This document shows positions 7,954 to 39,770 of a DNA stretch of 64,000 nucleotides, piece by piece (position 1 is the first letter of the stretch; every line of letters begins with the position of its first letter). Source of the stretch: an uncultured Nitrospiraceae bacterium. GTDB taxonomy: Bacteria > Nitrospirota > Thermodesulfovibrionia > Thermodesulfovibrionales > UBA6898. A program made the translations under genes and the position numbers. The stretch spans positions 832,001 to 896,000 of the forward strand of contig CAWEQH010000010.1 in NCBI GenBank assembly GCA_963811165.1, given 5' to 3'. Under the pieces are notes generated by a model that saw only the letters and a list, made by a program, of their open reading frames with translations, was not told the DNA's origin and did not search any database.

Positions 7954-8998
7954 GTGATTACTTCTCGCTTTATAAGGAGGTTTTTCTACAATTCTACGGC
8001 TCGCGCCGCTGCAGCACCGAAACTCGCCTCGAATGATTTCGGGACTCAGACAGTCGGTTCTGCTGACGCTTCTCTTGGCCAAGAATTGTTGACGAAAAGC
8101 CTCCAAGTCGCTCGAATCAACCACATCGCCCTTTCTTTCTCACTGGCAGCAGTCGTATTTTTAATTTTTGTCGGGCATGCTCTTGCCCTCGATGTGCCTA
8201 AGCTGCAAGGATACGTGAATGATTATGCAAACATGATCTCGCCCCAAGCAAAGGGGGAACTCGAAAACGAGCTGAAGAATTTCGAGCAGACCGACTCGAC
8301 ACAGATAGTGATCCTGACCGTTCCTTCCCTCGAGGGGGAAGTGATCGAGGACTTCGACATCAAGGTCGCAGAGGCATGGAAGATAGGGCAAAAAGGAAAG
8401 GACAACGGCGTAATCTTCGTCGTTTCGAAACAGGACAGAAAGATGAGAATCGAGGTGGGGCGCGGGCTCGAAGGCAAGTTGACAGACCTGATGGCCGGAA
8501 GGATAATAGACCTCGTGGTAAAACCGAGGTTCAAGAGAGGAGACTATGACGGAGGGTTCATAGCGGGCGTCTCGGCGCTTATTGATACAACGCGCGGAGA
8601 ATTTAAGGCGGATGGAAACCATCGCGGCCAACAAACGTGAATCGTCTTCTCGTCTCTTCACTTTTCTCATATTCATCGGCATTGCAGTCGTCGTCCTCGG
8701 GAGCGTATCCCGCCCCCTCGGAGCGATTGGAGGGGCGTTGGGCTTGCCCCTGAGTGTCTTTCTGGCTTCCGTATCCGTAGGCCTGGTCGGCTTTCTCATC
8801 CTCGCCATCGTGGGTGTCGCCGCCGGACTTCTGCTTCCCTCCCTCTTCTCGTCGGGCGGACGGGGAGGAGGCTTCGGACCCGGCGGGTTTTACGGCGGAG
8901 GGTTCGGAGGGGGCGGATTCGGCAGCGGCGGCGGCAGCGACTTCGGCGGCGGTGGTGGAGGCGACTTCGGCGGCGGCGGGGCGTCGGGAGACTGGTAA
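7954..8998 (+). CDS. TPM-domain (YgcG-like) membrane protein with Gly-rich tail; split by one frameshift near 8620-8640
   Basis: ORF 7954..8640 has the TPM domain (WKIGQKGKDNG, RIEVGRGLEG). ORF 8582..8998 has the TM helices and GGGDFGGGGASGDW tail typical of the same protein. Confidence 0.85.
7976..8104. repeat. Long imperfect palindromic element within the 5' coding region of the TPM gene
   Basis: GGAGGTTTTTC-TACAATTCT (7976-7995) pairs with AGAATTGT..GAAAAGCCTCC (8082-8104); inner GCAGCACCGA (8011-8020) pairs with TCGGTTCTGC (8054-8063). Confidence 0.65.
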
Positions 8999-26883: not shown

Positions 26884-28539
26884 ATGCCCTTACACGGTAT
26901 TTTGCCAAAAGACTATCTCAACAGGGAGGAAGAGCTGGCCTATCTGAGACGCCTCGCCGGTTTGAGGAAAGACACGCTCGCGGCCAACGTCCTGCTCGTG
27001 GGACCACGCGGCGTAGGGAAGACCGAACTCCTCAAACAGATTTATCAGTCTCTCTTTTGGGAGGTGCAGGACGTCGTGCCGTTCTATTATTCTTTTAAGA
27101 CCGCGGCACTGAAAAGCACAACCTTTGCAAGGGATTATTTCACGCGGTTCGTTAAACAATACATCGCCTTTGTAAAAAAGGAACCCTTATATGTAGACAA
27201 CGTGAGCATGCCCATTCACCGGCTGATGCCGGTTATTTCATCTCTCGGCCTGGACTGGATGATAGACAGCATCGACGATTTCCGGGAAAACACCGATCAG
27301 GGCGATCTTTACGGGCAGATACTCTCCGCCATTTCAGCCCCTGTAAACGCGGCAGTCAGAGGGGGACGTACAATACTTGTGATGCTGGACGATTTCACCG
27401 CCTCGGAGGACCTCCATGAGGCAAAACGCGGCGATGCCCCCGGCCTGACCAGCCTGTTCGAAGAATCTATGAAGAACAGCCTTTGCCCTCATATAATCAC
27501 CGGCTCCCCTGCGGCCAAACTGGAGGCCATCTTTTCCGATCCCTCGCTTTATAAAGGGACGGAGAGGATGCGCCTTTCCCCGCTTCCGGAGGACACTGCG
27601 TATGTCCTCTTCGCCTCTCTCCTTCAGAAGATGAAGATCACCTGCGACCGGGAGGCGGCGCTCGGACTTATCCGGAAGGTGAGGGGGAACCCGCTCTATA
27701 TAAGAAACATGGCCAAGGCGGCGTGGAAGATGAAGAAAAACAACCTCGATGAGAGGGACCTTATCGAATGTTACGGCTTTGAGATCATGGATGGGGAGAC
27801 CGCCTTTTACTGGTCTTCTGTCTTTGGTGAAAACATACGCGACAAGGGCCTGAGAAGGACCGTCCTTGGGCTCCTCATGCACCGGCTCTCTAAGGGAGAA
27901 GCAGGTGACTATGAAAGGCTTTCAAAGGTCCTCGGTGTGCGTGAGACCGAACTCGGCGCGGCGCTTGATGTCCTTGAATTCAACGACTTCGGCCGAAGCG
28001 GCGATCCCGTGTTGGAGGATTTCGTTTTGTCCCTCTACATGAAAGAGATCGAGGGCAGGACTTCCGGGGAAATACGGGGGCGCATCGAGGCTCAATACGG
28101 CACGCCGCGCGACTCATCCGTCTTTGAGATGGTCATCCCCATGAGCGAGCAGGCGGAGCTCGTCGCTGCGCGGGCCGTCGACCAGATAGGGAAGAATATA
28201 AACCTCGAACCGGAGGTGATGAATTACCTCCAGCTGGCACTTGTGGAGTGCTGCATAAACGCCATGGAGCATAGCGGAAGTTATGAGAAGAAGATCTATC
28301 TAAAGTTCCTCACCTCGCCGCAAAAGTTGGAGGTCATGATAGAAAGCCCCGGAAGGTATTTCTCGCTTGATTCCCTCAAGGAAAGCCCTACCGAAAAGAA
28401 GATGGAAGCGGGGCAGAAAAGGGGCTGGGGATTTACGCTTATGCGGAAGATCATGGATGAGGTGAGGGTCGAAAGGGTCCATGACAGGACGAGGGTGACG
28501 CTCGTAAAAAACATAAAGAAAAGCGAGGTGCGTAAGTGA
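26884..28539 (+). CDS. P-loop ATPase fused to C-terminal RsbW-like anti-sigma/kinase (HATPase) domain
   Basis: NREEEL, Walker A GPRGVGKT, Walker B ILVMLDDF; C-terminal LALVECCINAMEH and RGWGFTLMRKIMDEV. Confidence 0.8.
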   Translation: MPLHGILPKDYLNREEELAYLRRLAGLRKDTLAANVLLVGPRGVGKTELLKQIYQSLFWEVQDVVPFYYSFKTAALKSTTFARDYFTRFVKQYIAFVKKEPLYVDNVSMPIHRLMPVISSLGLDWMIDSIDDFRENTDQGDLYGQILSAISAPVNAAVRGGRTILVMLDDFTASEDLHEAKRGDAPGLTSLFEESMKNSLCPHIITGSPAAKLEAIFSDPSLYKGTERMRLSPLPEDTAYVLFASLLQKMKITCDREAALGLIRKVRGNPLYIRNMAKAAWKMKKNNLDERDLIECYGFEIMDGETAFYWSSVFGENIRDKGLRRTVLGLLMHRLSKGEAGDYERLSKVLGVRETELGAALDVLEFNDFGRSGDPVLEDFVLSLYMKEIEGRTSGEIRGRIEAQYGTPRDSSVFEMVIPMSEQAELVAARAVDQIGKNINLEPEVMNYLQLALVECCINAMEHSGSYEKKIYLKFLTSPQKLEVMIESPGRYFSLDSLKESPTEKKMEAGQKRGWGFTLMRKIMDEVRVERVHDRTRVTLVKNIKKSEVRK

Positions 28540-28910
28540 ATCCATCACCATTTCAGGTAAAGTCGCGGCTCGTAAAAGACGTGGCGGTCGTCTATCCTCA
28601 GGGGTATCTCAACAACCTCGCGGGAGAAGGCCTCGTTAACGAGTGCGGTAAGTATGCAAAATCGGGCATAAAGAAGATCGTCGTAAATTTCAGGGAAACG
28701 GACCTTATTAATTCCATAGGTATTTCCCTTCTTCTTCATGTTATGGAAGAGTTGCAGGGCGCCGGAGGAACTCTCTGTTTTACAGACATGAGCAAGACCC
28801 AGCTCGGTATCTTCGAGATGCTCGGCCTCACAAAATACTTTCGCTTTTTCCAGGACGAAAACGGGGCACTGCAGTTTCTGGCGGCCGGGGGAGTAGGAGA
28901 TGGAGCTTAA
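28536..28910 (+). CDS. STAS-domain anti-sigma factor antagonist
   Basis: INSIGISLL phospho-serine motif; FEMLGL. Confidence 0.88.
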   Translation: MNPSPFQVKSRLVKDVAVVYPQGYLNNLAGEGLVNECGKYAKSGIKKIVVNFRETDLINSIGISLLLHVMEELQGAGGTLCFTDMSKTQLGIFEMLGLTKYFRFFQDENGALQFLAAGGVGDGA

Positions 28911-30135
28911 AAAGGCGCTCTTCAACATTTCCGCGCTTGCCGACCTCGGGGAAGAGATCACCTCTGAAAAGGATTTTCAAGAGAAGCTGCAGTCACTGCT
29001 CTACGTGGTAATGGGGACCTTTCTCGCCAGTAAAGGCGCGATCACTTGCCAGGAAAAGTCCGCGGATAAGATTGTGTTCGTCTCCAGGAAAGGGTTCGAG
29101 AACCTCTCCCTGGATGCCATAGATCTGGGGTTCCTCCGGGCGGCCGGGAAAAACGAACCATACCTCATAGAAAATGATCCCGCCCTCACGTCGGCGGGTG
29201 TCGAAATAATCACACCGCTTTGGGTAAGAAACGAATTCATCGGGACGATCATGTTAAGCAGGAAATTCACCTCCGAACCCTACACTCAGGAGGACTTCGA
29301 GATCCTCAAGGTCATCGCCCATCAGATCGCCATCACGCTCAACAACCGGGCGCTCTTTATGAATCTGACGGAGCAGCTCGACGATAACCGGCACCTCTAC
29401 CAGGAGATGCGGAGGATCTATCACGACACCCTCCAGGCCTTCGCCGCAGCAATAGACGCAAAGGATGTCTATACGAGGCATCACTCCCAGAGGGTCGCAA
29501 AATATTCGGTTGCGATCGCGAGGGAACTCGGCTGGAACGAACACGACATCGAAGGTATCTACGTTGCGGGGTTCCTCCACGATGTAGGGAAACTGGTTAT
29601 AAGCAACGAAATCCTGAACAAAAAAACGCCTTTTACGCCGAAAGAAATGGAGGAGATGCGGAAGCATTCGCTCTTGTCCTACAAGATCATATCCCATATA
29701 AAGTTCCCCTGGAAGGACGTGGAAAAGATCGTCAAACACCACCATGAAAGGCCTGACGGCACGGGCTATCCCGATGCCTTGTCGCAGGGAGATCTGAGCG
29801 AAGGGGCGAAGGTCCTTGCACTCGCGGATTCTTTCGATGCGATGACGTCCAAAAGGGCCTATCGCGACAAGATGGACCTCAAGGCGGCACTTGCCGAGCT
29901 GAGCAGGTGCCTCAACCGGCAGTTCGACGACAAGATCATGCTTGCCTTCTGCAAGGTACTGGACAAGGAGATCAGGGGCGAACTTCCCGAACCTAATATT
30001 CTGCCTCACCTGGACAAGGATTCAGACCTCTCCGTAATCCCGGCGCTCCTGGAAGGCATCATACGCGAGCTTTCCGGGGAGAATAAAGGAGGGCTGAAAA
30101 GCCCCATGGCCTCTAAAGATGCGCATCTCGTTTGA
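28900..30135 (+). CDS. GAF + HD-GYP cyclic-dinucleotide phosphodiesterase
   Basis: DAKD.YT..HS.RV, LHDVGK, HHERPDGTGYP and ADSFDAMTS. Confidence 0.92.
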   Translation: MELKKALFNISALADLGEEITSEKDFQEKLQSLLYVVMGTFLASKGAITCQEKSADKIVFVSRKGFENLSLDAIDLGFLRAAGKNEPYLIENDPALTSAGVEIITPLWVRNEFIGTIMLSRKFTSEPYTQEDFEILKVIAHQIAITLNNRALFMNLTEQLDDNRHLYQEMRRIYHDTLQAFAAAIDAKDVYTRHHSQRVAKYSVAIARELGWNEHDIEGIYVAGFLHDVGKLVISNEILNKKTPFTPKEMEEMRKHSLLSYKIISHIKFPWKDVEKIVKHHHERPDGTGYPDALSQGDLSEGAKVLALADSFDAMTSKRAYRDKMDLKAALAELSRCLNRQFDDKIMLAFCKVLDKEIRGELPEPNILPHLDKDSDLSVIPALLEGIIRELSGENKGGLKSPMASKDAHLV

Positions 30136-32574: not shown

Positions 32575-33159
32575 CTACAACTTTTCGTCTTCTGCCTGCA
32601 AACCCTTGTCTTCTTTCAGGAACAAAAGCAAGGCGGTGGAAGACGCTATAGAAAACGAAGCAAGATAGAAAAGGTACTGAAGACCATAGACCTTCGCCAG
32701 ATACCCTCCTAAGAGAAGACCCGCTGCTGAAGAGACACTCACGATCGCATTAAACTTTCCAACGGTCTTGCCCCTCTGCTGCTTTATCGTAAGATCACCC
32801 AGCAGGGACGTGCTTACCGTCCCTACAATACCGTTTGTAACCCCCAATACGGCCTGCAGAAGGTATAGCTGATATTGTTCCTTAATCACCGTATAGAGAA
32901 AAATTACCGTTGCATCAACAAAAGCTGTGGTGATAAGGAAGGGTTTCCTCCCTAAACGATCGGAGTAGCCGCCCGCAATATAGGTGGTACCCGCCTGGAG
33001 AAGCACCATTATGCTGAAGGCCAACCCGAGTCTTTCCATGCCGCCGCTGAGCTTTGCGACCTGAAGCACATAAAAGGGGCCGATGAAGCCTAATACAATG
33101 GCCCAGATAGAGCTCACACTTGTGAATATGCGGAGATTCCTTTCATTCGTCGTGATCAA
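32575..33159 (-). CDS. Half-size MFS transporter (about 6 TM)
   Basis: MFS motif A GGYSDRLGRKP; ATGA start overlaps the rSAM stop. Confidence 0.8.
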   Translation of the reverse strand: MITTNERNLRIFTSVSSIWAIVLGFIGPFYVLQVAKLSGGMERLGLAFSIMVLLQAGTTYIAGGYSDRLGRKPFLITTAFVDATVIFLYTVIKEQYQLYLLQAVLGVTNGIVGTVSTSLLGDLTIKQQRGKTVGKFNAIVSVSSAAGLLLGGYLAKVYGLQYLFYLASFSIASSTALLLFLKEDKGLQAEDEKL

Positions 33160-34457
33160 TCGCCGGTCTCCGGCATATACTTTATTTCCTGTTTGACAAG
33201 GGTCTCAAGCGTGGCATCGAGATAAGGCTTCCTGCAATCGATCTCGTGGATGTTTCCGTCTCTGAGGACCTTCATGAACCTGCACCCCCCAAAACAGAGC
33301 GGCAGGTATTCGCAGTCGAGGCACTGCTCGTTCTTCCAGATATCAAGGGCATGAGACCCCTCAATATCCACCATCCCATCCCTGAGATTACCGGCCTCAA
33401 AACCCTTCCATCCGATAAACCCGGGGCATTTATAGATCGTCCCGTCATAATTCACCACGACATCATTTGTCAGCCCTATCATACAAGGAGAGGGAAGGAT
33501 TTTAGGGGTCTTAAAGCCCCGCTTCAGGATCTCCTCTCTAAGAAAAAGGGTGGCCCTGAATATCCAGGGCTCGTTGATCGATTCGCTTCCGTCCCTGAAT
33601 TCCGGAAGTGCAAACCTCTTCCCCGGCTTTACGACAGGATCAAATTTGACGATGAGAAACTTCTCCGGCGAAAGACCCTCTGAGATGAGATAATCAAGGA
33701 GTTCGGGAAAACTCCTATAGTTTTCCTCGGTATAGTTGCCGCCGATCTGGATGCCCAGGATGTCATATACCTCTTTAATGTTCTTTACGATCGTTTCAAA
33801 GGTCCCGCTCCCGGATTTGAAGGGCCGGAAGGCGTTGTGGTTGTCCTTTGGACCATCGAGCGTTATCTTTGCGCTTTTCATCCCCAGGGCTGCAAGCTCC
33901 TTCGCTTTAGCCTGCGTCAACAGGGTCCCGTTTGTTACGAGATTGAAGGAGTACGTAAGCCCCCTACCCTCAGCTAATGATTTCATTGTCTCGGATACCC
34001 TTTTTATATCAGGAAAGCTAAGGAGGGGCTCGCCGCCGTAGAAGTCGACATGTACGTCTTTGCCCTGAGAGAGGGCATGTTTTTCGAGAAAATCTGCCAG
34101 AAGCCCCAGGGTCTCTGAGGACATATAGTGCTTCCCTTTCATGTTTCCTTCATAGCAATAGGTGCAGCGCAGGTTACAGTCGAGGTTCATAACCACCATG
34201 GCATTGAATCTTCTTGCACGTTTATTAATGTCATCGATGAGACCGAGCATCTCCTTTTTTTCCTCATCCCTGTCAGGGACCAAAAACCCGAGCTCAAAAA
34301 GAACCTCCTGATCGGACAGCTCCAGTTCTCCCTTTTCTATTTGCTCAAGCACAGCCTTAGGCAGGAGGATCGTCGATGTCCGCCTGGTGGAATAAAGAAC
34401 CAGGTAGTCCGGATCACCCTCATAAGTATATGTCTTAATATATCTGGATAATTGCAT
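33156..34457 (-). CDS. Radical SAM/SPASM peptide maturase (geopeptide-maturase-like)
   Basis: CNLRCTYC, FYGGEPLL, TNG, ITLDG; SPASM cysteines CM..YKCPG..CLDCEYLPLCFGGC..C; N-terminal RRE-like extension. Confidence 0.92.
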   Translation of the reverse strand: MQLSRYIKTYTYEGDPDYLVLYSTRRTSTILLPKAVLEQIEKGELELSDQEVLFELGFLVPDRDEEKKEMLGLIDDINKRARRFNAMVVMNLDCNLRCTYCYEGNMKGKHYMSSETLGLLADFLEKHALSQGKDVHVDFYGGEPLLSFPDIKRVSETMKSLAEGRGLTYSFNLVTNGTLLTQAKAKELAALGMKSAKITLDGPKDNHNAFRPFKSGSGTFETIVKNIKEVYDILGIQIGGNYTEENYRSFPELLDYLISEGLSPEKFLIVKFDPVVKPGKRFALPEFRDGSESINEPWIFRATLFLREEILKRGFKTPKILPSPCMIGLTNDVVVNYDGTIYKCPGFIGWKGFEAGNLRDGMVDIEGSHALDIWKNEQCLDCEYLPLCFGGCRFMKVLRDGNIHEIDCRKPYLDATLETLVKQEIKYMPETGD

Positions 34458-34462
34458 AATCT

Positions 34463-34493
34463 TAAAAAAGAGAGGGGGAGTTGGCTCCCCCTA
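34463..34493 (-). terminator. Intrinsic terminator-like hairpin between precursor and maturase
   Basis: Minus strand GGGGGAG-CCAA-CTCCCCC followed by TCTCTTTTT. Confidence 0.7.
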
Positions 34494-34529
34494 AAGATGC
34501 ATACGTCTCAAACAGCTGCGTTCGTACGA

Positions 34530-34631
34530 TCATCCACCTCTTAACGGCAAGAAGGCCCCGTAGCAACAGACACCTAATGGCCCAGCCGAATCCTTTACTC
34601 CCTTGCTTAGTACCACTATCGCCTTCTTCAT
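34530..34631 (-). CDS. Putative RiPP precursor peptide, geopeptide-like (33 aa; not in ORF track)
   Basis: MKKAIVVLSKGVKDSAGPLGVCCYGAFLPLRGG; AGGAGG RBS; Cys-Cys motif; directly upstream of the rSAM/SPASM gene. Confidence 0.8.
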   Translation of the reverse strand: MKKAIVVLSKGVKDSAGPLGVCCYGAFLPLRGG

Positions 34632-34696
34632 TTTTCTCGCCTCCTCTCATATGAACCAGAATGCCTCCAATGGAGGTTTATATCGGACAAATATAT

Positions 34697-36607
34697 CTAA
34701 ATCTTTAGCCGCAGGCCCGCCTCGACCCATCGCCTGGGATTCCTGAAGGCATCCACTAGATATTGGGAGCCGTTCAAGATATTGTGAGCTGTAAAGAAAA
34801 ACTCCGCGTTTCCTTTCCCAAAAGAAAGGACCTTCTTATCGAGGCTGAAATCCCATATCATAGAATTATAACTGGCGTTAGCTGAAGGATCTGCGTTCCA
34901 CCAGATATAATGGCCCTTAAGCAAAGCCCTGAAAGACTTGTTGTCATTGTAATGGATCCCCACGTCATAGGTATACCTGGGGACGTTCTGCAGCTCCTCC
35001 CCGGTATCTCTATCCGTAGCATCGGTAAAGGCAACACCGGCGGAAATGGAGACGTTATAGACCGGTACGGTTTTCAGCTCGAACTCGAAACCCTGTCTTC
35101 TCTGTTTTCCCTGGTTTACAGCCCTAAATGTCCCGTCACTCAAGGTCTCATCAAAAATTGCATCCGTAATTTCATGCCTGAACGCCGTGCCCTTCAACCA
35201 GAGGTATTTCAAAGCAGTCGATTCGATGCCGGCCTGCAGAGACCATACCTTCTCCATCCTTAGATCGGGGTTCGGCACAGAGAAGGTACCCGTGCCGAAG
35301 GTGGCTGAAAGCGGAGGGGTACTGAACCCTCTTGCTCCAATGGCCCTCAGCATCGTTTTTTCACCAAGATTATAGGTCACCCCCAGGCTCGGGCTCACGA
35401 AGCCGCCGTTGGTGGTCGTGTGGTCATATCTGATGCCCGGAGTGAAGGAGAACTTCTCGACGGTCATCGTGTCATTCACAAATACCGCCCATCTGCCGAG
35501 GCTCTGTTTTCCGGCGGTAATGTTATTCGACTCAAGCTCCCCGTAGTCATAGTCAAAACCCGAGACCACATCATGCATGCTGTTTCTCCATGTAAACTTG
35601 AGGCTCCCGCCGCTGCTCTTATCATCAAAGTTGCTGCCCGAAAGGGTTTCCCCGGTACTGAGGCTGTTATTGATGAGTTCGGCATGCTGACGCGAGGTCC
35701 TCAAAGATGCATTAAGGTCTGCGGTGTCGGTAAGAGAATAATTGAACGATAGTGTAGAAAAAAGATACTCGAAGTCATTGCCGAAGGAGATATCGAAGTC
35801 GGGAAACTCCCCCTCTCCCCTTGACCCCTTGTTATAGCCGAAGGTGAAGGCGACGTTTGCCTTCGAAGAGGCATCCCATTTTAATTTCGAGTAAATATTG
35901 TTCTCATAAAAAGGGGTATTGGGCCTTAACCCGTTTGAAACGAGATTTCCGCCATAGAGGTAATAGGAAAGACTCTCCGCCTTCCCGGAGACCTCAGCCC
36001 TGTAGTCTCCCGTATTCCTCTCGCCGTAAGATGCGGAAAGCATTCCTCCCGCCTTCCGTGATCCATCGCCACCCTTTGTGATGATGTGGATTATTCCGCC
36101 CAGCGACGAACCCCAGATAGAAGAAGCCGGACCCTTGATTATCTCGATCCTATCGATAATCTGGGCAGGGACAGCGGCAATGTCGGCGAAGCTGTCGGAG
36201 AGGTTATTGAGTGTTACATCATCGATAATCACGATTGCATGCCTGAATTCCGAACCCTGAATCCGGACTGAAGCACCACTTCCGGGACCGCCCCTTGAAT
36301 CGATCTGAACGCCGGTTATGTTTAAAAGGACATCGGCCAGCGTGTGAGCGTTCATCTCCTCGATATCGCCTGCAGTAATTACGGTGATGTTCTCGGCTAC
36401 ATGGGAGATGGGCTTGGGATGCCTCGTGGGGGTCACCACGAGGTCTCTCTCTTCGTAGAACATCTGGAGCGTATTGGTTTCATCTTCAGACTGCGCCCAG
36501 GCATCGGAGATGAATGAAACAGAAAAGGCGAAAAGACAGAGGGCCAATATTCTATTTATTAATTGGTCTCTGCTTATAAAGTCTGATATAGTATTTAAGA
36601 ATGGCAT
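34697..36607 (-). CDS. TonB-dependent receptor
   Basis: Signal peptide, plug (VVTPTR..ITVITA.DI, IRIQG, IDRIEIIKGPASSIWG), barrel features PNPDL..E and NILN. Confidence 0.93.
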   Translation of the reverse strand: MPFLNTISDFISRDQLINRILALCLFAFSVSFISDAWAQSEDETNTLQMFYEERDLVVTPTRHPKPISHVAENITVITAGDIEEMNAHTLADVLLNITGVQIDSRGGPGSGASVRIQGSEFRHAIVIIDDVTLNNLSDSFADIAAVPAQIIDRIEIIKGPASSIWGSSLGGIIHIITKGGDGSRKAGGMLSASYGERNTGDYRAEVSGKAESLSYYLYGGNLVSNGLRPNTPFYENNIYSKLKWDASSKANVAFTFGYNKGSRGEGEFPDFDISFGNDFEYLFSTLSFNYSLTDTADLNASLRTSRQHAELINNSLSTGETLSGSNFDDKSSGGSLKFTWRNSMHDVVSGFDYDYGELESNNITAGKQSLGRWAVFVNDTMTVEKFSFTPGIRYDHTTTNGGFVSPSLGVTYNLGEKTMLRAIGARGFSTPPLSATFGTGTFSVPNPDLRMEKVWSLQAGIESTALKYLWLKGTAFRHEITDAIFDETLSDGTFRAVNQGKQRRQGFEFELKTVPVYNVSISAGVAFTDATDRDTGEELQNVPRYTYDVGIHYNDNKSFRALLKGHYIWWNADPSANASYNSMIWDFSLDKKVLSFGKGNAEFFFTAHNILNGSQYLVDAFRNPRRWVEAGLRLKI

Positions 36608-36674
36608 AACTTATACCGATTAAGATAACTATATAAGAAATATTGCCTCTTGTCTAGAAGCGGGGGAATTTAAT

Positions 36675-37571
36675 TTGCATAGGTATTTCATACTGATATT
36701 GCTTCTCTTAATTCCTTTCGCTCGCGCCCATGCGGACCAAAAGAGCGCGCTCATCGTCCAAAGCACAAAGATAGCGCCGTACAACGAGGCGGCCGAGGGC
36801 TTCAAGAGCAGTTGTCAGTGCGCTACAAGGGAGTTGGTCCTTTCGGATGCTGAAGGGCTCAACTTATTCAGGGAAATCCGCTCCTCCCAGCCCGATGTCA
36901 TTCTCGCCCTCGGGTTCGACGCGCTCCTTAGGCTTAAAGCGATCAAAGATGTTCCCATCGTTTATGCGATGGTAGCAAACCCTGAGTCTTTACACTTGGC
37001 GGACGCCAACATTAAGGGTGTCAGCATGAATATCGCGCCTGAAAAGCAGTTGTCCCTGCTCCGGGAAGCCTTCCCCGGCCTCCGCAAGGTAGGGCTTCTC
37101 TACAACCCTCTCAAATCCGGAGACTTCGTCGAAAAAGCAGTTGCTTCATCTAAAAATATGTCGGTAAGGATCATTGCAAAGGAGGTCCATCATCCCAAGG
37201 ATGTTCCTCTGAAAATTGATAGCCTCAAGGACAAAATAGACGTGTTCTGGATGATACCCGACTCAACGGTTTTCTCTCCTGAGACCGTAGAATATCTCTT
37301 CCTTTTTTCCTTTGAGAACAAGATACCTGTCTTGACCTTTTCGGAGAAATACCTGTCAATGGGCGCAGTAATATCTGTAAATATAGATGCAAGAGATATC
37401 GGGCGGCAGGCCGGAGAAATGGCAGCGAAGATCTTGTCAGGGGCCAATGTTAAGGATATCCCTAGTGTTGACGCGAGGAAAGCCAACGTCATGGTAAATC
37501 TGATAACGGCAAAAAAAATAGGAAGGCCCCTCAGCAATGAGACCCTTCTCAGGAGGAAGGTAATCAACTGA
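36675..37571 (+). CDS. Periplasmic substrate-binding protein (ABC_sub_bind-like), no ABC permease adjacent
   Basis: Signal peptide; PYNEAAEGFK, VPIVYAMV, VGLLYNP, WMIPDS, IGRQAGEMA and VNL.TAKKIG. Confidence 0.85.
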   Translation: MHRYFILILLLLIPFARAHADQKSALIVQSTKIAPYNEAAEGFKSSCQCATRELVLSDAEGLNLFREIRSSQPDVILALGFDALLRLKAIKDVPIVYAMVANPESLHLADANIKGVSMNIAPEKQLSLLREAFPGLRKVGLLYNPLKSGDFVEKAVASSKNMSVRIIAKEVHHPKDVPLKIDSLKDKIDVFWMIPDSTVFSPETVEYLFLFSFENKIPVLTFSEKYLSMGAVISVNIDARDIGRQAGEMAAKILSGANVKDIPSVDARKANVMVNLITAKKIGRPLSNETLLRRKVIN

Positions 37572-37572
37572 G

Positions 37573-39576
37573 ATGAAGGCTAAATTAGTCGGCGCTTTGA
37601 GAAAAATGGGCCAGAGTTTCGGCACAAAGGTATTTCTAAGGTTGACTATTCTCATTTTAGTCATCACAACCGGTTTCACCGCTTTTTTTCTTTATGAACA
37701 AACCAGGACCCTCAAACAAGGTATCAGAAACGAGGGTGAGCTGTTTGCGCAGCTTGTTGCACAAAGCCTGAGACTTAGTATCTTCTCCGAAAGCACGGCG
37801 CTCATGGAAGACGTCCTCAAAACATATCTCGAAAATAAAAAGGTCATGTCGGTCACGGCCTTTAACTCCGAAGGGAAAATTCTTATCAAGAAATATGGAC
37901 CTCTCGGTCCCTCTTCGATACATCCGCCCCCGGATGAATATCAGGTCGCACAGGTCCTCAAAGGGCTGAGAGAGACCCATGCGCAGTTTTACTACAGGGA
38001 TTTACCGAACACGTTCGAGATCTGGACTCCCGTGCTTTCGGGGCTTTCCTACGCCAACGAGGAGTCCATGTTTTTTGCCGAGGCCAATCCCGATGTGAAA
38101 CGCATAATAGGCTACGTCAGGATAGTTTTGGACAAGAGCATGCTGAACAGGCAGCAATCACTGCTTTTGGTAAAGGGGATAGGTATATGTCTGGTCCTTC
38201 TTACCTTCATCCCGGCTGTCTTCTATTTCATGGTAAAAAAAGTGACGAAGCCGCTCAACAAGCTTACCGAAAGCGTGCGTGCCATAGAAGAAGGGGCGGC
38301 AGTGGAACCCCTCCCGATCGAGACGAACGACGAAATAGGAAAGCTCGCCCTTGCCTTCAATGAAATGGCGGATTCACTCAAAAGAAAAGAGACGGAAAAG
38401 CAACAATTGGAGGGACAGCTGAGGCAGGCACAGAAAATGGAAGCGATCGGAACTCTCTCGGGTGGAATCGCCCATGACTTTAATAATATCCTGTCGGCTA
38501 TAGGCGGGTTTGGCCATCTTATAGGGATGGGGGTCCAGCATGACGACCGATTAAAGTCCTATGTGGGGCGAATAATGTATTCCGTAGAAAAAGGGGCCAC
38601 GCTTACTCACAGCCTGCTGGCTTTCAGCAGAAAACAGCTGATCAAAGTTCAGCCGGTAAAGATTAATGACGTCGTCTTATCAGCGGAGAAAATTCTTATG
38701 CGGTTGATCGGCGAGGATATAGAATTCAGGACGCGCCTTATCAACAAGGATTTGGTCATTATGGCAGATACGGGTCTGTTAGATCAGGTGCTTATGAACC
38801 TCACCACAAATGCACGGGATGCGATGCCCGGCGGAGGAATTCTCACCATAGCAGTTGAATATGTCGAATTTGAAGAGCAGACCGGCATAAAAAAGCCGGG
38901 GCGTTACGCCCTCTTGTCCGTCTCTGATACCGGTGAGGGGATAAACGAGGAAAACAAGAAACGGATATTTGATCCTTTCTTTACGACGAAGGAAGTCGGA
39001 AAAGGCACCGGTCTCGGCCTCGCTATGGCATATGGGATAGTCAAGCAGCATGAGGGCTACATCGAGGTCGAAAGCGAGGTTGGGAAAGGGACTACCTTCT
39101 ATATATATTTACCCATATATGAAAGACTCGTTGAGGAGAAAGTGCCGCATGAAGGAAGAAACTTTTCAGAGCAGCGACAGCGACCCCGGAGTGGTGAAAC
39201 CGTTCTTCTCGCAGAGGATGACGAAGACGTCAGAGGCCTTTCAAGGCGCATCCTCGAGATGGATGGATATACCGTGATAGAGGCACGGGACGGAGAGGAA
39301 GCGGTCTCCGAGTTTATCAAGAATAAGGATAAGATACACTTCCTCCTTTTTGATTTAGTGATGCCTAAGAAAAACGGATACCGGGCTTACGAAGAAATCA
39401 GACAAGTGAACCCCGACATTAAAGCCCTCTTTATAAGCGGTTACTCGGCAAACATTATATATGAAAAAAAAATCCTCCAAGAAGCCATAAATTACGTGTC
39501 AAAGCCTATTTTGCCGGACATTCTTCTGAAAGAGGTCAGAAAAGTGCTCGACGGCGGGCAATCAGATTTGCGATAG
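37573..39576 (+). CDS. Membrane HAMP hybrid sensor histidine kinase/receiver
   Basis: Two TMs, HAMP (PL..L..NDEIG.L..AFNEM), GGIAHDFNN, GKGTGLGL and C-terminal receiver. Confidence 0.93.
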   Translation: MKAKLVGALRKMGQSFGTKVFLRLTILILVITTGFTAFFLYEQTRTLKQGIRNEGELFAQLVAQSLRLSIFSESTALMEDVLKTYLENKKVMSVTAFNSEGKILIKKYGPLGPSSIHPPPDEYQVAQVLKGLRETHAQFYYRDLPNTFEIWTPVLSGLSYANEESMFFAEANPDVKRIIGYVRIVLDKSMLNRQQSLLLVKGIGICLVLLTFIPAVFYFMVKKVTKPLNKLTESVRAIEEGAAVEPLPIETNDEIGKLALAFNEMADSLKRKETEKQQLEGQLRQAQKMEAIGTLSGGIAHDFNNILSAIGGFGHLIGMGVQHDDRLKSYVGRIMYSVEKGATLTHSLLAFSRKQLIKVQPVKINDVVLSAEKILMRLIGEDIEFRTRLINKDLVIMADTGLLDQVLMNLTTNARDAMPGGGILTIAVEYVEFEEQTGIKKPGRYALLSVSDTGEGINEENKKRIFDPFFTTKEVGKGTGLGLAMAYGIVKQHEGYIEVESEVGKGTTFYIYLPIYERLVEEKVPHEGRNFSEQRQRPRSGETVLLAEDDEDVRGLSRRILEMDGYTVIEARDGEEAVSEFIKNKDKIHFLLFDLVMPKKNGYRAYEEIRQVNPDIKALFISGYSANIIYEKKILQEAINYVSKPILPDILLKEVRKVLDGGQSDLR

Positions 39577-39679: not shown

Positions 39680-39770
39680 TGGCGGAGAGATAGGGATTCG
39701 AACCCTAGGTGCGGGATTAGCGCACACACGATTTCCAGTCGTGCACCTTCGGCCACTCGGTCATCTCTCC
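39680..39770 (-). tRNA. tRNA-Ser (anticodon GGA)
   Basis: Reverse complement GGAGAGATG..CACGA-CT-GGA-AA-TCGTG..long variable arm..GGTTCGAATCC..CTCTCCGCCA. Confidence 0.97.

Follow-up and report, generated by a model that had tools for sequence, protein, structure and literature searches.

Gram-positive bacteria are well known for signalling with peptides, but in Gram-negative bacteria the outer membrane blocks this route. The ligands of LuxP/LuxQ and XylFII/LytS, in which a protein with the periplasmic-binding-protein fold is paired with a membrane kinase and not with a transporter, are small sugars or autoinducer 2 (AI-2). Among peptides synthesized on ribosomes and modified after translation (RiPPs), a quorum-sensing role in clostridia is attributed to the SCIFF ranthipeptides (Chen et al. 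2020, as cited in the available portions of PMC8102284 and PMC8326336), and the enzyme of that system, CteB, in which an auxiliary cluster is open, makes a Cys thioether (available portion of PMC8326336). We regard this clostridial role as the nearest functional precedent for the locus described here. The locus lies in a 64,000-nucleotide stretch of an uncultured Nitrospiraceae bacterium (GCA_963811165.1, contig CAWEQH010000010.1, positions 832,001 to 896,000), called the window throughout, and encodes a TonB-dependent receptor, a short Cys-Cys peptide, a radical S-adenosylmethionine (SAM)/SPASM maturase, a half-size major facilitator superfamily (MFS) protein, a periplasmic binding protein and a hybrid histidine kinase. 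The link between the RiPP genes and the receptor, binding-protein and kinase set is conserved. The matured peptide is quite possibly a signal that is imported via the receptor and sensed in the periplasm, with cassettes that lack RiPP genes (orphan cassettes) acting as receivers.

Conservation was assessed on 132 loci, which were reduced to 116 of this receptor clade by merging identical receptor ends; the search anchors were built from cassette members and favor cassette-type matches. The binding protein was present in 65 of the 74 loci having both receptor and maturase, and binding protein plus kinase in 54, most of the missing binding proteins and kinases falling near contig ends. With the binding protein as anchor (80 metagenome loci, counting those with room), the receptor was found in 53/54, the kinase sensor domain in 50/51 and the maturase in 20/24. 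Of 20 additional loci anchored on the maturase, 19 contain a receptor and 15 a binding protein. The same gene set turns up in records of Nitrospirota, many Geobacteraceae and Desulfobacterales, and one carrier, Geobacter hydrogenophilus DSM 13691 (L096), is cultured. Among named genomes the nearest to this one come from Thermodesulfovibrionales, the probable group of the host. The maturase model TIGR04280 scored above its cut-off in 27 of 61 relatives and in 32 of 301 genomes of the phylum. The linkage of RiPP genes to sensor genes is kept in two different gene orders, both of which occur in this genome. The second cassette, located outside the window (G000:C10:927310-934814), runs on one strand in the order receptor, peptide, maturase (TIGR04280, 538.9 bits), binding protein, kinase and sigma-54-type regulator. 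It has no MFS gene, its Cys-Cys peptide is basic-tailed, its kinase lacks a receiver, and its neighbor is the ATP synthase operon, an arrangement shared with about 15 relatives. The first-pass annotation of the window had proposed conservation of the neighborhood across genomes as a check on its reading, and the linkage does recur. The candidate signal gene, the receptor and the kinase are conserved together, as expected of quorum sensing.

Three close copies of the cassette (L071, L072 and L073) were seen in one genome at about 88% to the window, with slightly differing peptide cores and two of them without a kinase; within this set the large gene that changes fastest is that of the binding protein. 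In a single case (L281:995-5348), a YfiR/HmsC-like protein (PF13689), a CHASE8 hybrid kinase and a sigma-54 regulator lie upstream of the receptor, peptide and maturase genes in place of the usual sensor pair.

Distance tests on complete CC-type loci (37 in the first test, 60 in the second) divide the cassette into two modules, receptor-peptide-maturase and binding protein-kinase sensor. In the 60 loci, binding-protein distances correlated with those of the kinase sensor domain (rho 0.84, partial 0.80; 0.74-0.81 in subsets) and receptor distances with those of the maturase (rho 0.69, partial 0.63), whereas the receptor did not track the binding protein when the maturase was held fixed (partial -0.05). 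The pattern was robust to dropping the most divergent clade and to splitting by gene order, with the receptor-maturase correlation dropping to 0.38 in the co-oriented class. That the receptor follows the maturase but not the binding protein agrees with the maturase product being the cargo of the receptor. The peptide core also tracked the maturase (partial 0.18, p 0.004). The co-variation of binding protein and kinase sensor domain suggests that the two form a complex; it is suggestive and not proof, because adjacent genes co-vary through linkage too. Note that the kinase-core distances of the 37-locus test are unreliable, the cores being of unrelated types.

The window precursor, MKKAIVVLSKGVKDSAGPLGVCCYGAFLPLRGG, is one of a family from which 75 related precursors were recovered. 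Cys-Cys is present in 69 of these and the leader motif I-(I/V)-(V/I)-L-x-x-G in 59, whereas the residues C-terminal to the cysteines are highly variable, ranging from aromatic tails (as in the window) to short basic ones; a conserved leader with a variable core is the organization of a radical SAM RiPP precursor gene. Of 17 pairs compared, 16 had a defined value of synonymous divergence (dS), and in every one of these nonsynonymous divergence (dN) was lower, for example 0.08 versus 0.53 against L072. The 33-residue peptide gene is real and under purifying selection, and this selection, together with the recurrence of the genes across Nitrospirota, Geobacteraceae and Desulfobacterales records, makes the peptide and its gene set more than chance. 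Positive selection on the binding protein or the peptide was not seen, every dN/dS value being below 1. The comparison with the geopeptide precursor model TIGR04229 (22 positions, cut-off 30 bits), which the first-pass annotation had put forward, gave no match for the window peptide. Among 17 related peptides none passed 30 bits (six weak scores, the best 24.9 bits), and the model looks too narrow for this precursor family.

Several precursors depart from the common form. Long histone-like Lys/Ala repeats, reaching 88 residues, stand in for the leader or lengthen it in L050, L052, L059, L060, L062 and L276. Cores other than CC (of CWWC and single-Cys type, with one CxC) occur in L086, L095, L096, L106, L111 and L123 and may carry different crosslinks. 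Selenocysteine was considered for the CC-less peptides and none was seen, such peptides being single-Cys or WWC variants. The L090 peptide appears frameshifted. In L041 (about 8140-8400) and L085:9937-10267 two tandem precursor genes with differing cores precede one maturase.

The assignment of the maturase to the geopeptide family was borne out by TIGR04280, which scored 619.1 bits over residues 1-427 against a cut-off of 400, whereas the SCIFF model TIGR03974 gave 110 bits against a cut-off of 425. The radical SAM motif CxxxCxxC (C94/98/101) is conserved and the SPASM cysteines C325/344/379/382/388/392/408 are invariant in 60/60 sequences; position 291 is Cys in 49 of the 60 and Ser in the window enzyme. 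The closest solved sequence is CteB (5WGG, E 5.6e-34), with which the predicted model aligns over residues 4-429 (Z 25.1, root-mean-square deviation 4.6, 393 aligned). Model residues 7-71 form three strands followed by three helices, the arrangement of a RiPP recognition element (RRE). In the fold ranking, anSME ties with CteB over the barrel and SPASM part (Z 25.0-25.7 versus 25.1-25.2), and anSME performs chemistry other than that of CteB. Because the maturase resembles CteB, a Cys-thioether former, we infer that it makes a Cys-to-carbon thioether on the peptide, and a crosslink on a Cys-Cys core of this kind is likely to be new. We found no papers on the geopeptide, TIGR04280 or TIGR04229 family in a search that left out subscription journals and supplements.

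Unlike receptors in FecA-type cell-surface signalling, the window receptor has no N-terminal signalling domain (the Pfam scan gave Plug, from residue 69, and barrel alone), and no anti-sigma/extracytoplasmic function sigma pair is linked to it in the window region. It scores under every NCBIfam cut-off, and a marked score gap separates the cassette receptor clade from other receptors. The nearest solved relative is BtuB (E 4e-42). In most loci the receptor gene lies 45-400 bp upstream of the peptide gene.

The binding protein (PF04392, 127 bits) gave a predicted model with a pLDDT (predicted local distance difference test) of 89. Its nearest folds are 3LKV, 3LFT and 6HNI/6HNJ, and the matches also include, distantly, the LuxP/LuxQ and XylFII/LytS complexes 2HJ9 and 5XSD. 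As in LuxPQ, the protein is linked to a kinase instead of an ATP-binding cassette (ABC) transporter. No open reading frame (ORF) with ABC-ATPase motifs lies within about 10 kb of either cassette copy in this genome, which upholds the earlier description of a binding protein without its transporter. The polar motifs IATP, AVTDP, GLSD and DNT of the solved amino-acid binders align to the apolar IGMD, MVPNP, GVSM and PDTT here, the ligand-contact residues being read from the alignment alone. A free amino acid is therefore an unlikely ligand. The peptide is our candidate ligand. Two other PF04392 proteins of this genome also adjoin sensors and not ABC transporters: a hybrid kinase in one case (G000:C10:748620-753630) and a chemotaxis-like receptor after a porin-like gene in the other (158660-162963).

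The kinase has membrane helices at residues 20-38 and 203-221. Its sCache_4 match is weak in the window (E 0.003) and above the cut-off in relatives, and its sensor domain gave one weak match only among solved sequences. No DNA-binding output accompanies the kinase in this locus. Across loci the same sensor domain is fused to HisKA, HisKA_3 and HisKA_2 cores, still beside the binding protein, and the sensor kinases of relatives are followed by sigma-54 or LuxR-type regulators. Since one sensor domain joins three kinds of kinase core and differing regulators, conservation extends to the input but not to the output.

The MFS gene begins within the last codons of the maturase gene, with a 4-nt overlap, and encodes only half a transporter, of 194 residues, whose PF07690 match (76 bits) spans positions 11-177 of the 347-position MFS_1 model. 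Among metagenome loci with room, the half-MFS was present in 11 of 18. It accompanies aromatic-tailed peptides in 10 of 11 loci, and 22 aromatic-tailed loci do without it. No immunity gene is conserved among the neighbors of 42 loci, and none of the loci examined encodes a way out through the outer membrane.

The ORF check of the window found all six ORFs at the coordinates, strands and spacings given in the first-pass annotation. The features are collected in Table 1. The binding-protein gene begins 67 bp from the first ATG of the receptor gene on the opposite strand, and the kinase gene starts 1 bp beyond the binding-protein gene.

Table 1 Features of the cassette in window coordinates
Feature	Coordinates	Strand	Family or remarks
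Half-size MFS protein	32575..33159	-	PF07690; 194 aa; optional cassette part
Radical SAM/SPASM maturase of the geopeptide family, RRE-like domain at the N terminus	33156..34457	-	TIGR04280
Terminator-like hairpin and U-run between peptide and maturase genes	34465..34492	-	From folding
Precursor peptide, 33 aa	34530..34631	-	IVVLSKG in the leader, then Cys-Cys and an aromatic tail
Conserved short hairpin (stem 5 bp, loop 3 nt)	34664..34676	-	About 30-45 nt 5' of peptide start
TonB-dependent receptor, 636 aa	34697..36607	-	PF00593 and PF07715; cassette-specific clade
Periplasmic binding protein	36675..37571	+	PF04392
Hybrid histidine kinase	37573..39576	+	sCache_4-like, HAMP, HisKA, HATPase, receiver

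Two RNA elements flank the peptide gene. The terminator-like hairpin between the peptide and maturase genes (fold z -2.47) likely lowers read-through into the maturase, and the region downstream of the peptide gene has a fold z below -2 in 56 of 75 loci. Before the peptide gene, a GC-rich stem of at least 4 bp was found in 37 of 75 loci, versus 3.5 expected from shuffles, with differing stem sequences. In the window, the 5' arm of the upstream hairpin can alternatively pair with the ribosome-binding site, which folds equally well (z -0.29). A role as an RNA-stability or translation element is possible. The window holds about as many sigma-70-like sites as chance predicts (9 versus 8.5).

A tRNA-Ser gene lies 100 bp past the kinase (window 39680-39770, minus strand), and GC content is 0.45-0.49 across 32-44 kb of the window versus 0.52-0.55 upstream. 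Integration at tRNA genes as a general trait of the cassette was rejected, a tRNA being present in only 5 of 42 related loci. Elsewhere in the window (26884-30135, plus strand) lies an operon encoding ATPase/anti-sigma-kinase-like, STAS anti-anti-sigma-like and GAF/HD-GYP-like proteins, as judged by eye from the translations.

The genes, their families, their conservation and the module structure are established. The chemistry and traffic that we propose, from crosslinking through export, import and binding to kinase control, would run as follows. Receptor and peptide genes would probably be co-transcribed, with the observed terminator-like hairpin limiting read-through into the maturase gene. 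Binding of the I-V-V-L-x-x-G leader would fall to the RRE-like domain, and the enzyme, to judge from its fold and cysteines, would form the Cys-to-carbon thioether in the manner of CteB. Leader removal and export would proceed through unlinked or housekeeping machinery, the half-MFS aiding some lineages only; this is the weakest step. The receptor would concentrate the product in the periplasm, where the product would halt for want of a linked inner-membrane ABC transporter. The loaded binding protein would then switch the kinase, with an output that varies from the hybrid kinase here to a sigma-54 activator or LuxR-type regulator in relatives, and orphan receptor-sensor cassettes would listen to peptides from elsewhere in the genome or from neighbors. 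With no ABC ATPase nearby and no signalling extension on the receptor, import seems therefore to end at the periplasmic binding protein, which favors sensing over feeding.

A number of observations weigh against a peptide that is exported, re-imported and sensed. Export via the MFS protein, as first proposed, does not generalize: the half-size protein accompanies 14 of 74 receptor-plus-maturase loci, or 11 of the 61 that extend far enough to show it, and neither a peptidase nor an ABC exporter recurs among the neighbors of 42 loci. Although there is room, the sensor pair is missing from L047 and L058 and the kinase from L035, L071 and L072. In the 60 loci the peptide core did not clearly follow the receptor (0.10, p 0.06), the binding protein (0.08, p 0.13) or the kinase sensor (0.01) in what is a crude distance test, and in the 37-locus test its values against all three were near zero; moreover, linkage alone can yield co-variation between neighboring genes. 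Free Phe, Trp or Tyr is the ligand in the solved relatives of the binding protein (available portion of PMC6816091). A shared sigma-54 promoter upstream of the receptor was rejected (1 strong match in 111, other regulator sites lying outside the search), and 4 of 62 receptor-maturase spacers scored at least 10.

The orphan cassettes bear on the same question in both directions, their nesting among producers and the presence of a maturase elsewhere in some genomes speaking for the proposed circuit. Exclusion of 16 contig-edge loci and 5 special cases left 95 classifiable loci, of which 15 are receptor-plus-binding-protein cassettes without an adjacent peptide or maturase and 6 are lone receptors of the same clade without an adjacent maturase. 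A maturase is encoded elsewhere in 10 of 16 genomes checked, and a maturase match is absent from the other 6, whose completeness is not given. Two genomes that are both 100% complete (G037 and G038, which may overlap with those six) carry the cassette and no maturase above the cut-off. In the receptor tree (FastTree, no firm root) orphans are nested within producer clades with 7 changes; a tree without a firm root cannot prove that they lost RiPP genes. A Geobacteraceae clade of 11-12 members remains orphan. Distant sets of receptor, binding protein and kinase (L171, L172 and L174) and receptor-less binding protein-kinase pairs (L173, L175 and L176) have no maturase at all, which makes the sensing design more ancient than the peptide and wider in its distribution. 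Independence of the cassette from peptide and radical SAM genes, which the first-pass annotation had named as grounds for giving up its reading, is thus partly observed in the 15 orphans. Its full circuit likewise survives in part: the maturase family, the peptide and the conserved linkage hold, whereas export by the MFS protein is not general, RiPP-free cassettes exist, the sigma-54 promoter search gave no sign of self-induction, and co-variation of core and sensor is unclear. Two further observations were made. In the orphan Geobacteraceae cassettes L097, L099, L104, L110, L113, L125, L126, L135 and L143 the receptor is followed downstream by a conserved protein of 350 residues whose CheR/methyltransferase match is weak. 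In L167:7658-10834 a transposase-like ORF interrupts a receptor of the clade; the genome, a single contig, has no maturase match and two binding protein-kinase pairs elsewhere.

The sensor might instead read an outside cue unrelated to the peptide, such as an aromatic metabolite or a neighbor's molecule, with the RiPP as a switched-on output, for example an antimicrobial; we consider this unlikely. In its favor, cassettes without RiPP genes persist, including some in genomes that have no maturase match; the sensing design exists without RiPP genes, and the PF04392 paralogs here adjoin a kinase or chemotaxis-like receptor; the core does not clearly track the sensor; the solved relatives take Phe, Trp or Tyr; and streptococcal radical SAM RiPP (RaS-RiPP) clusters under a separate signal provide a precedent (available portion of PMC9389541). 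It fits poorly with a receptor that tracks the maturase over the sensor and sits just 5' of the peptide gene in most loci, with cleft motifs that the alignment gives as apolar here and polar in amino-acid binders, and with the lack of a conserved immunity gene or dedicated exporter. Somewhat less probable again is a metal carrier, in which Cys-Cys binds the metal, the receptor imports the complex, the sensor tunes uptake and the orphans are cheaters. No metal-handling gene recurs among the neighbors of the 42 loci or lies near the window, no ABC or other inner-membrane importer is linked, cores of single-Cys and WWC type exist (L096, L106, L111, L086 and L095), and the maturase type, by inference from CteB, predicts that the Cys sulfur would be consumed in thioethers. 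All the same, Cys-Cys is the sole near-invariant part of the core (69/75, the remainder varying), the receptor tracks the maturase, and a receptor near biosynthetic genes together with orphan receptors is typical of metallophore systems.

Two other explanations seem more remote. The peptide could act inside the envelope, either binding the binding protein directly or going outward via the receptor, with no external re-import loop; this we judge improbable, since orphan receptor-sensor cassettes in maturase-less genomes fit import better, although the loci examined encode no outer-membrane exit route and a TonB-dependent transporter, Oar of Myxococcus, serves secretion. That the two modules are adjacent by descent only and functionally unlinked is hardly credible: either module sometimes occurs alone, but the linkage persists over two gene orders and several phyla and is recovered from all three anchors.

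If the peptide is indeed imported and then sensed, the cassette offers a concrete bypass of the outer membrane, with import by a TonB receptor and read-out by binding protein plus kinase. It is a tentative and rather doubtful generalization that Gram-negative anaerobes of multiple phyla signal with radical-SAM-crosslinked peptides passed from TonB receptor to orphan binding protein to Cache kinase, with strain-variable cores and widespread eavesdropping orphans. With similar reserve, an import-then-sense peptide relay of this design may be new for Gram-negative bacteria, should that reading be true. The cassette is common in metal- and sulfur-cycling anaerobes, and the cultured carrier makes it directly testable. 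Under the alternatives too, a named but unstudied maturase family gains substrates, namely 75 precursors missed by the current model. New from this locus are the divergent half-MFS form, the orphan-cassette count and the two-module result.

Compared with known systems, the cassette is closest by name to the NCBIfam geopeptide system, given that the maturase passes TIGR04280 (a hypothetical equivalog) and a short Cys-containing precursor lies directly upstream; the window peptide, however, misses TIGR04229, and the receptor, binding protein and kinase are not covered by the models as seen. The PF04392 aromatic amino-acid binders VC_1101, SP1069, CD0873 and TrpX are the closest solved folds and sequences to the binding protein (20-22% identity), whereas they serve ABC transporters and have different cleft motifs, the TrpX-model score of the window protein being 80 against a cut-off of 390. 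LuxP/LuxQ and XylFII/LytS are distant matches outside PF04392 and work without RiPP genes or a TonB receptor. Radical SAM RiPP genes adjoin a signalling unit in the streptococcal SHP/Rgg RaS-RiPP clusters, and an uncharacterized Parabacteroides RaS-RiPP cluster has both a two-component system and a TonB receptor (available portion of PMC9389541). In such clusters the signal is either another peptide or not known, there is a peptidase/ABC exporter, and no orphan PF04392 protein appears. Finally, whereas the SCIFF ranthipeptides (CteA/CteB) come from Gram-positive hosts and have six-Cys precursors, no TonB receptor and no binding-protein/kinase pair, CteB is the closest match to the window maturase both in solved sequence and in full-length fold, with RRE, SAM barrel and SPASM domain alike.

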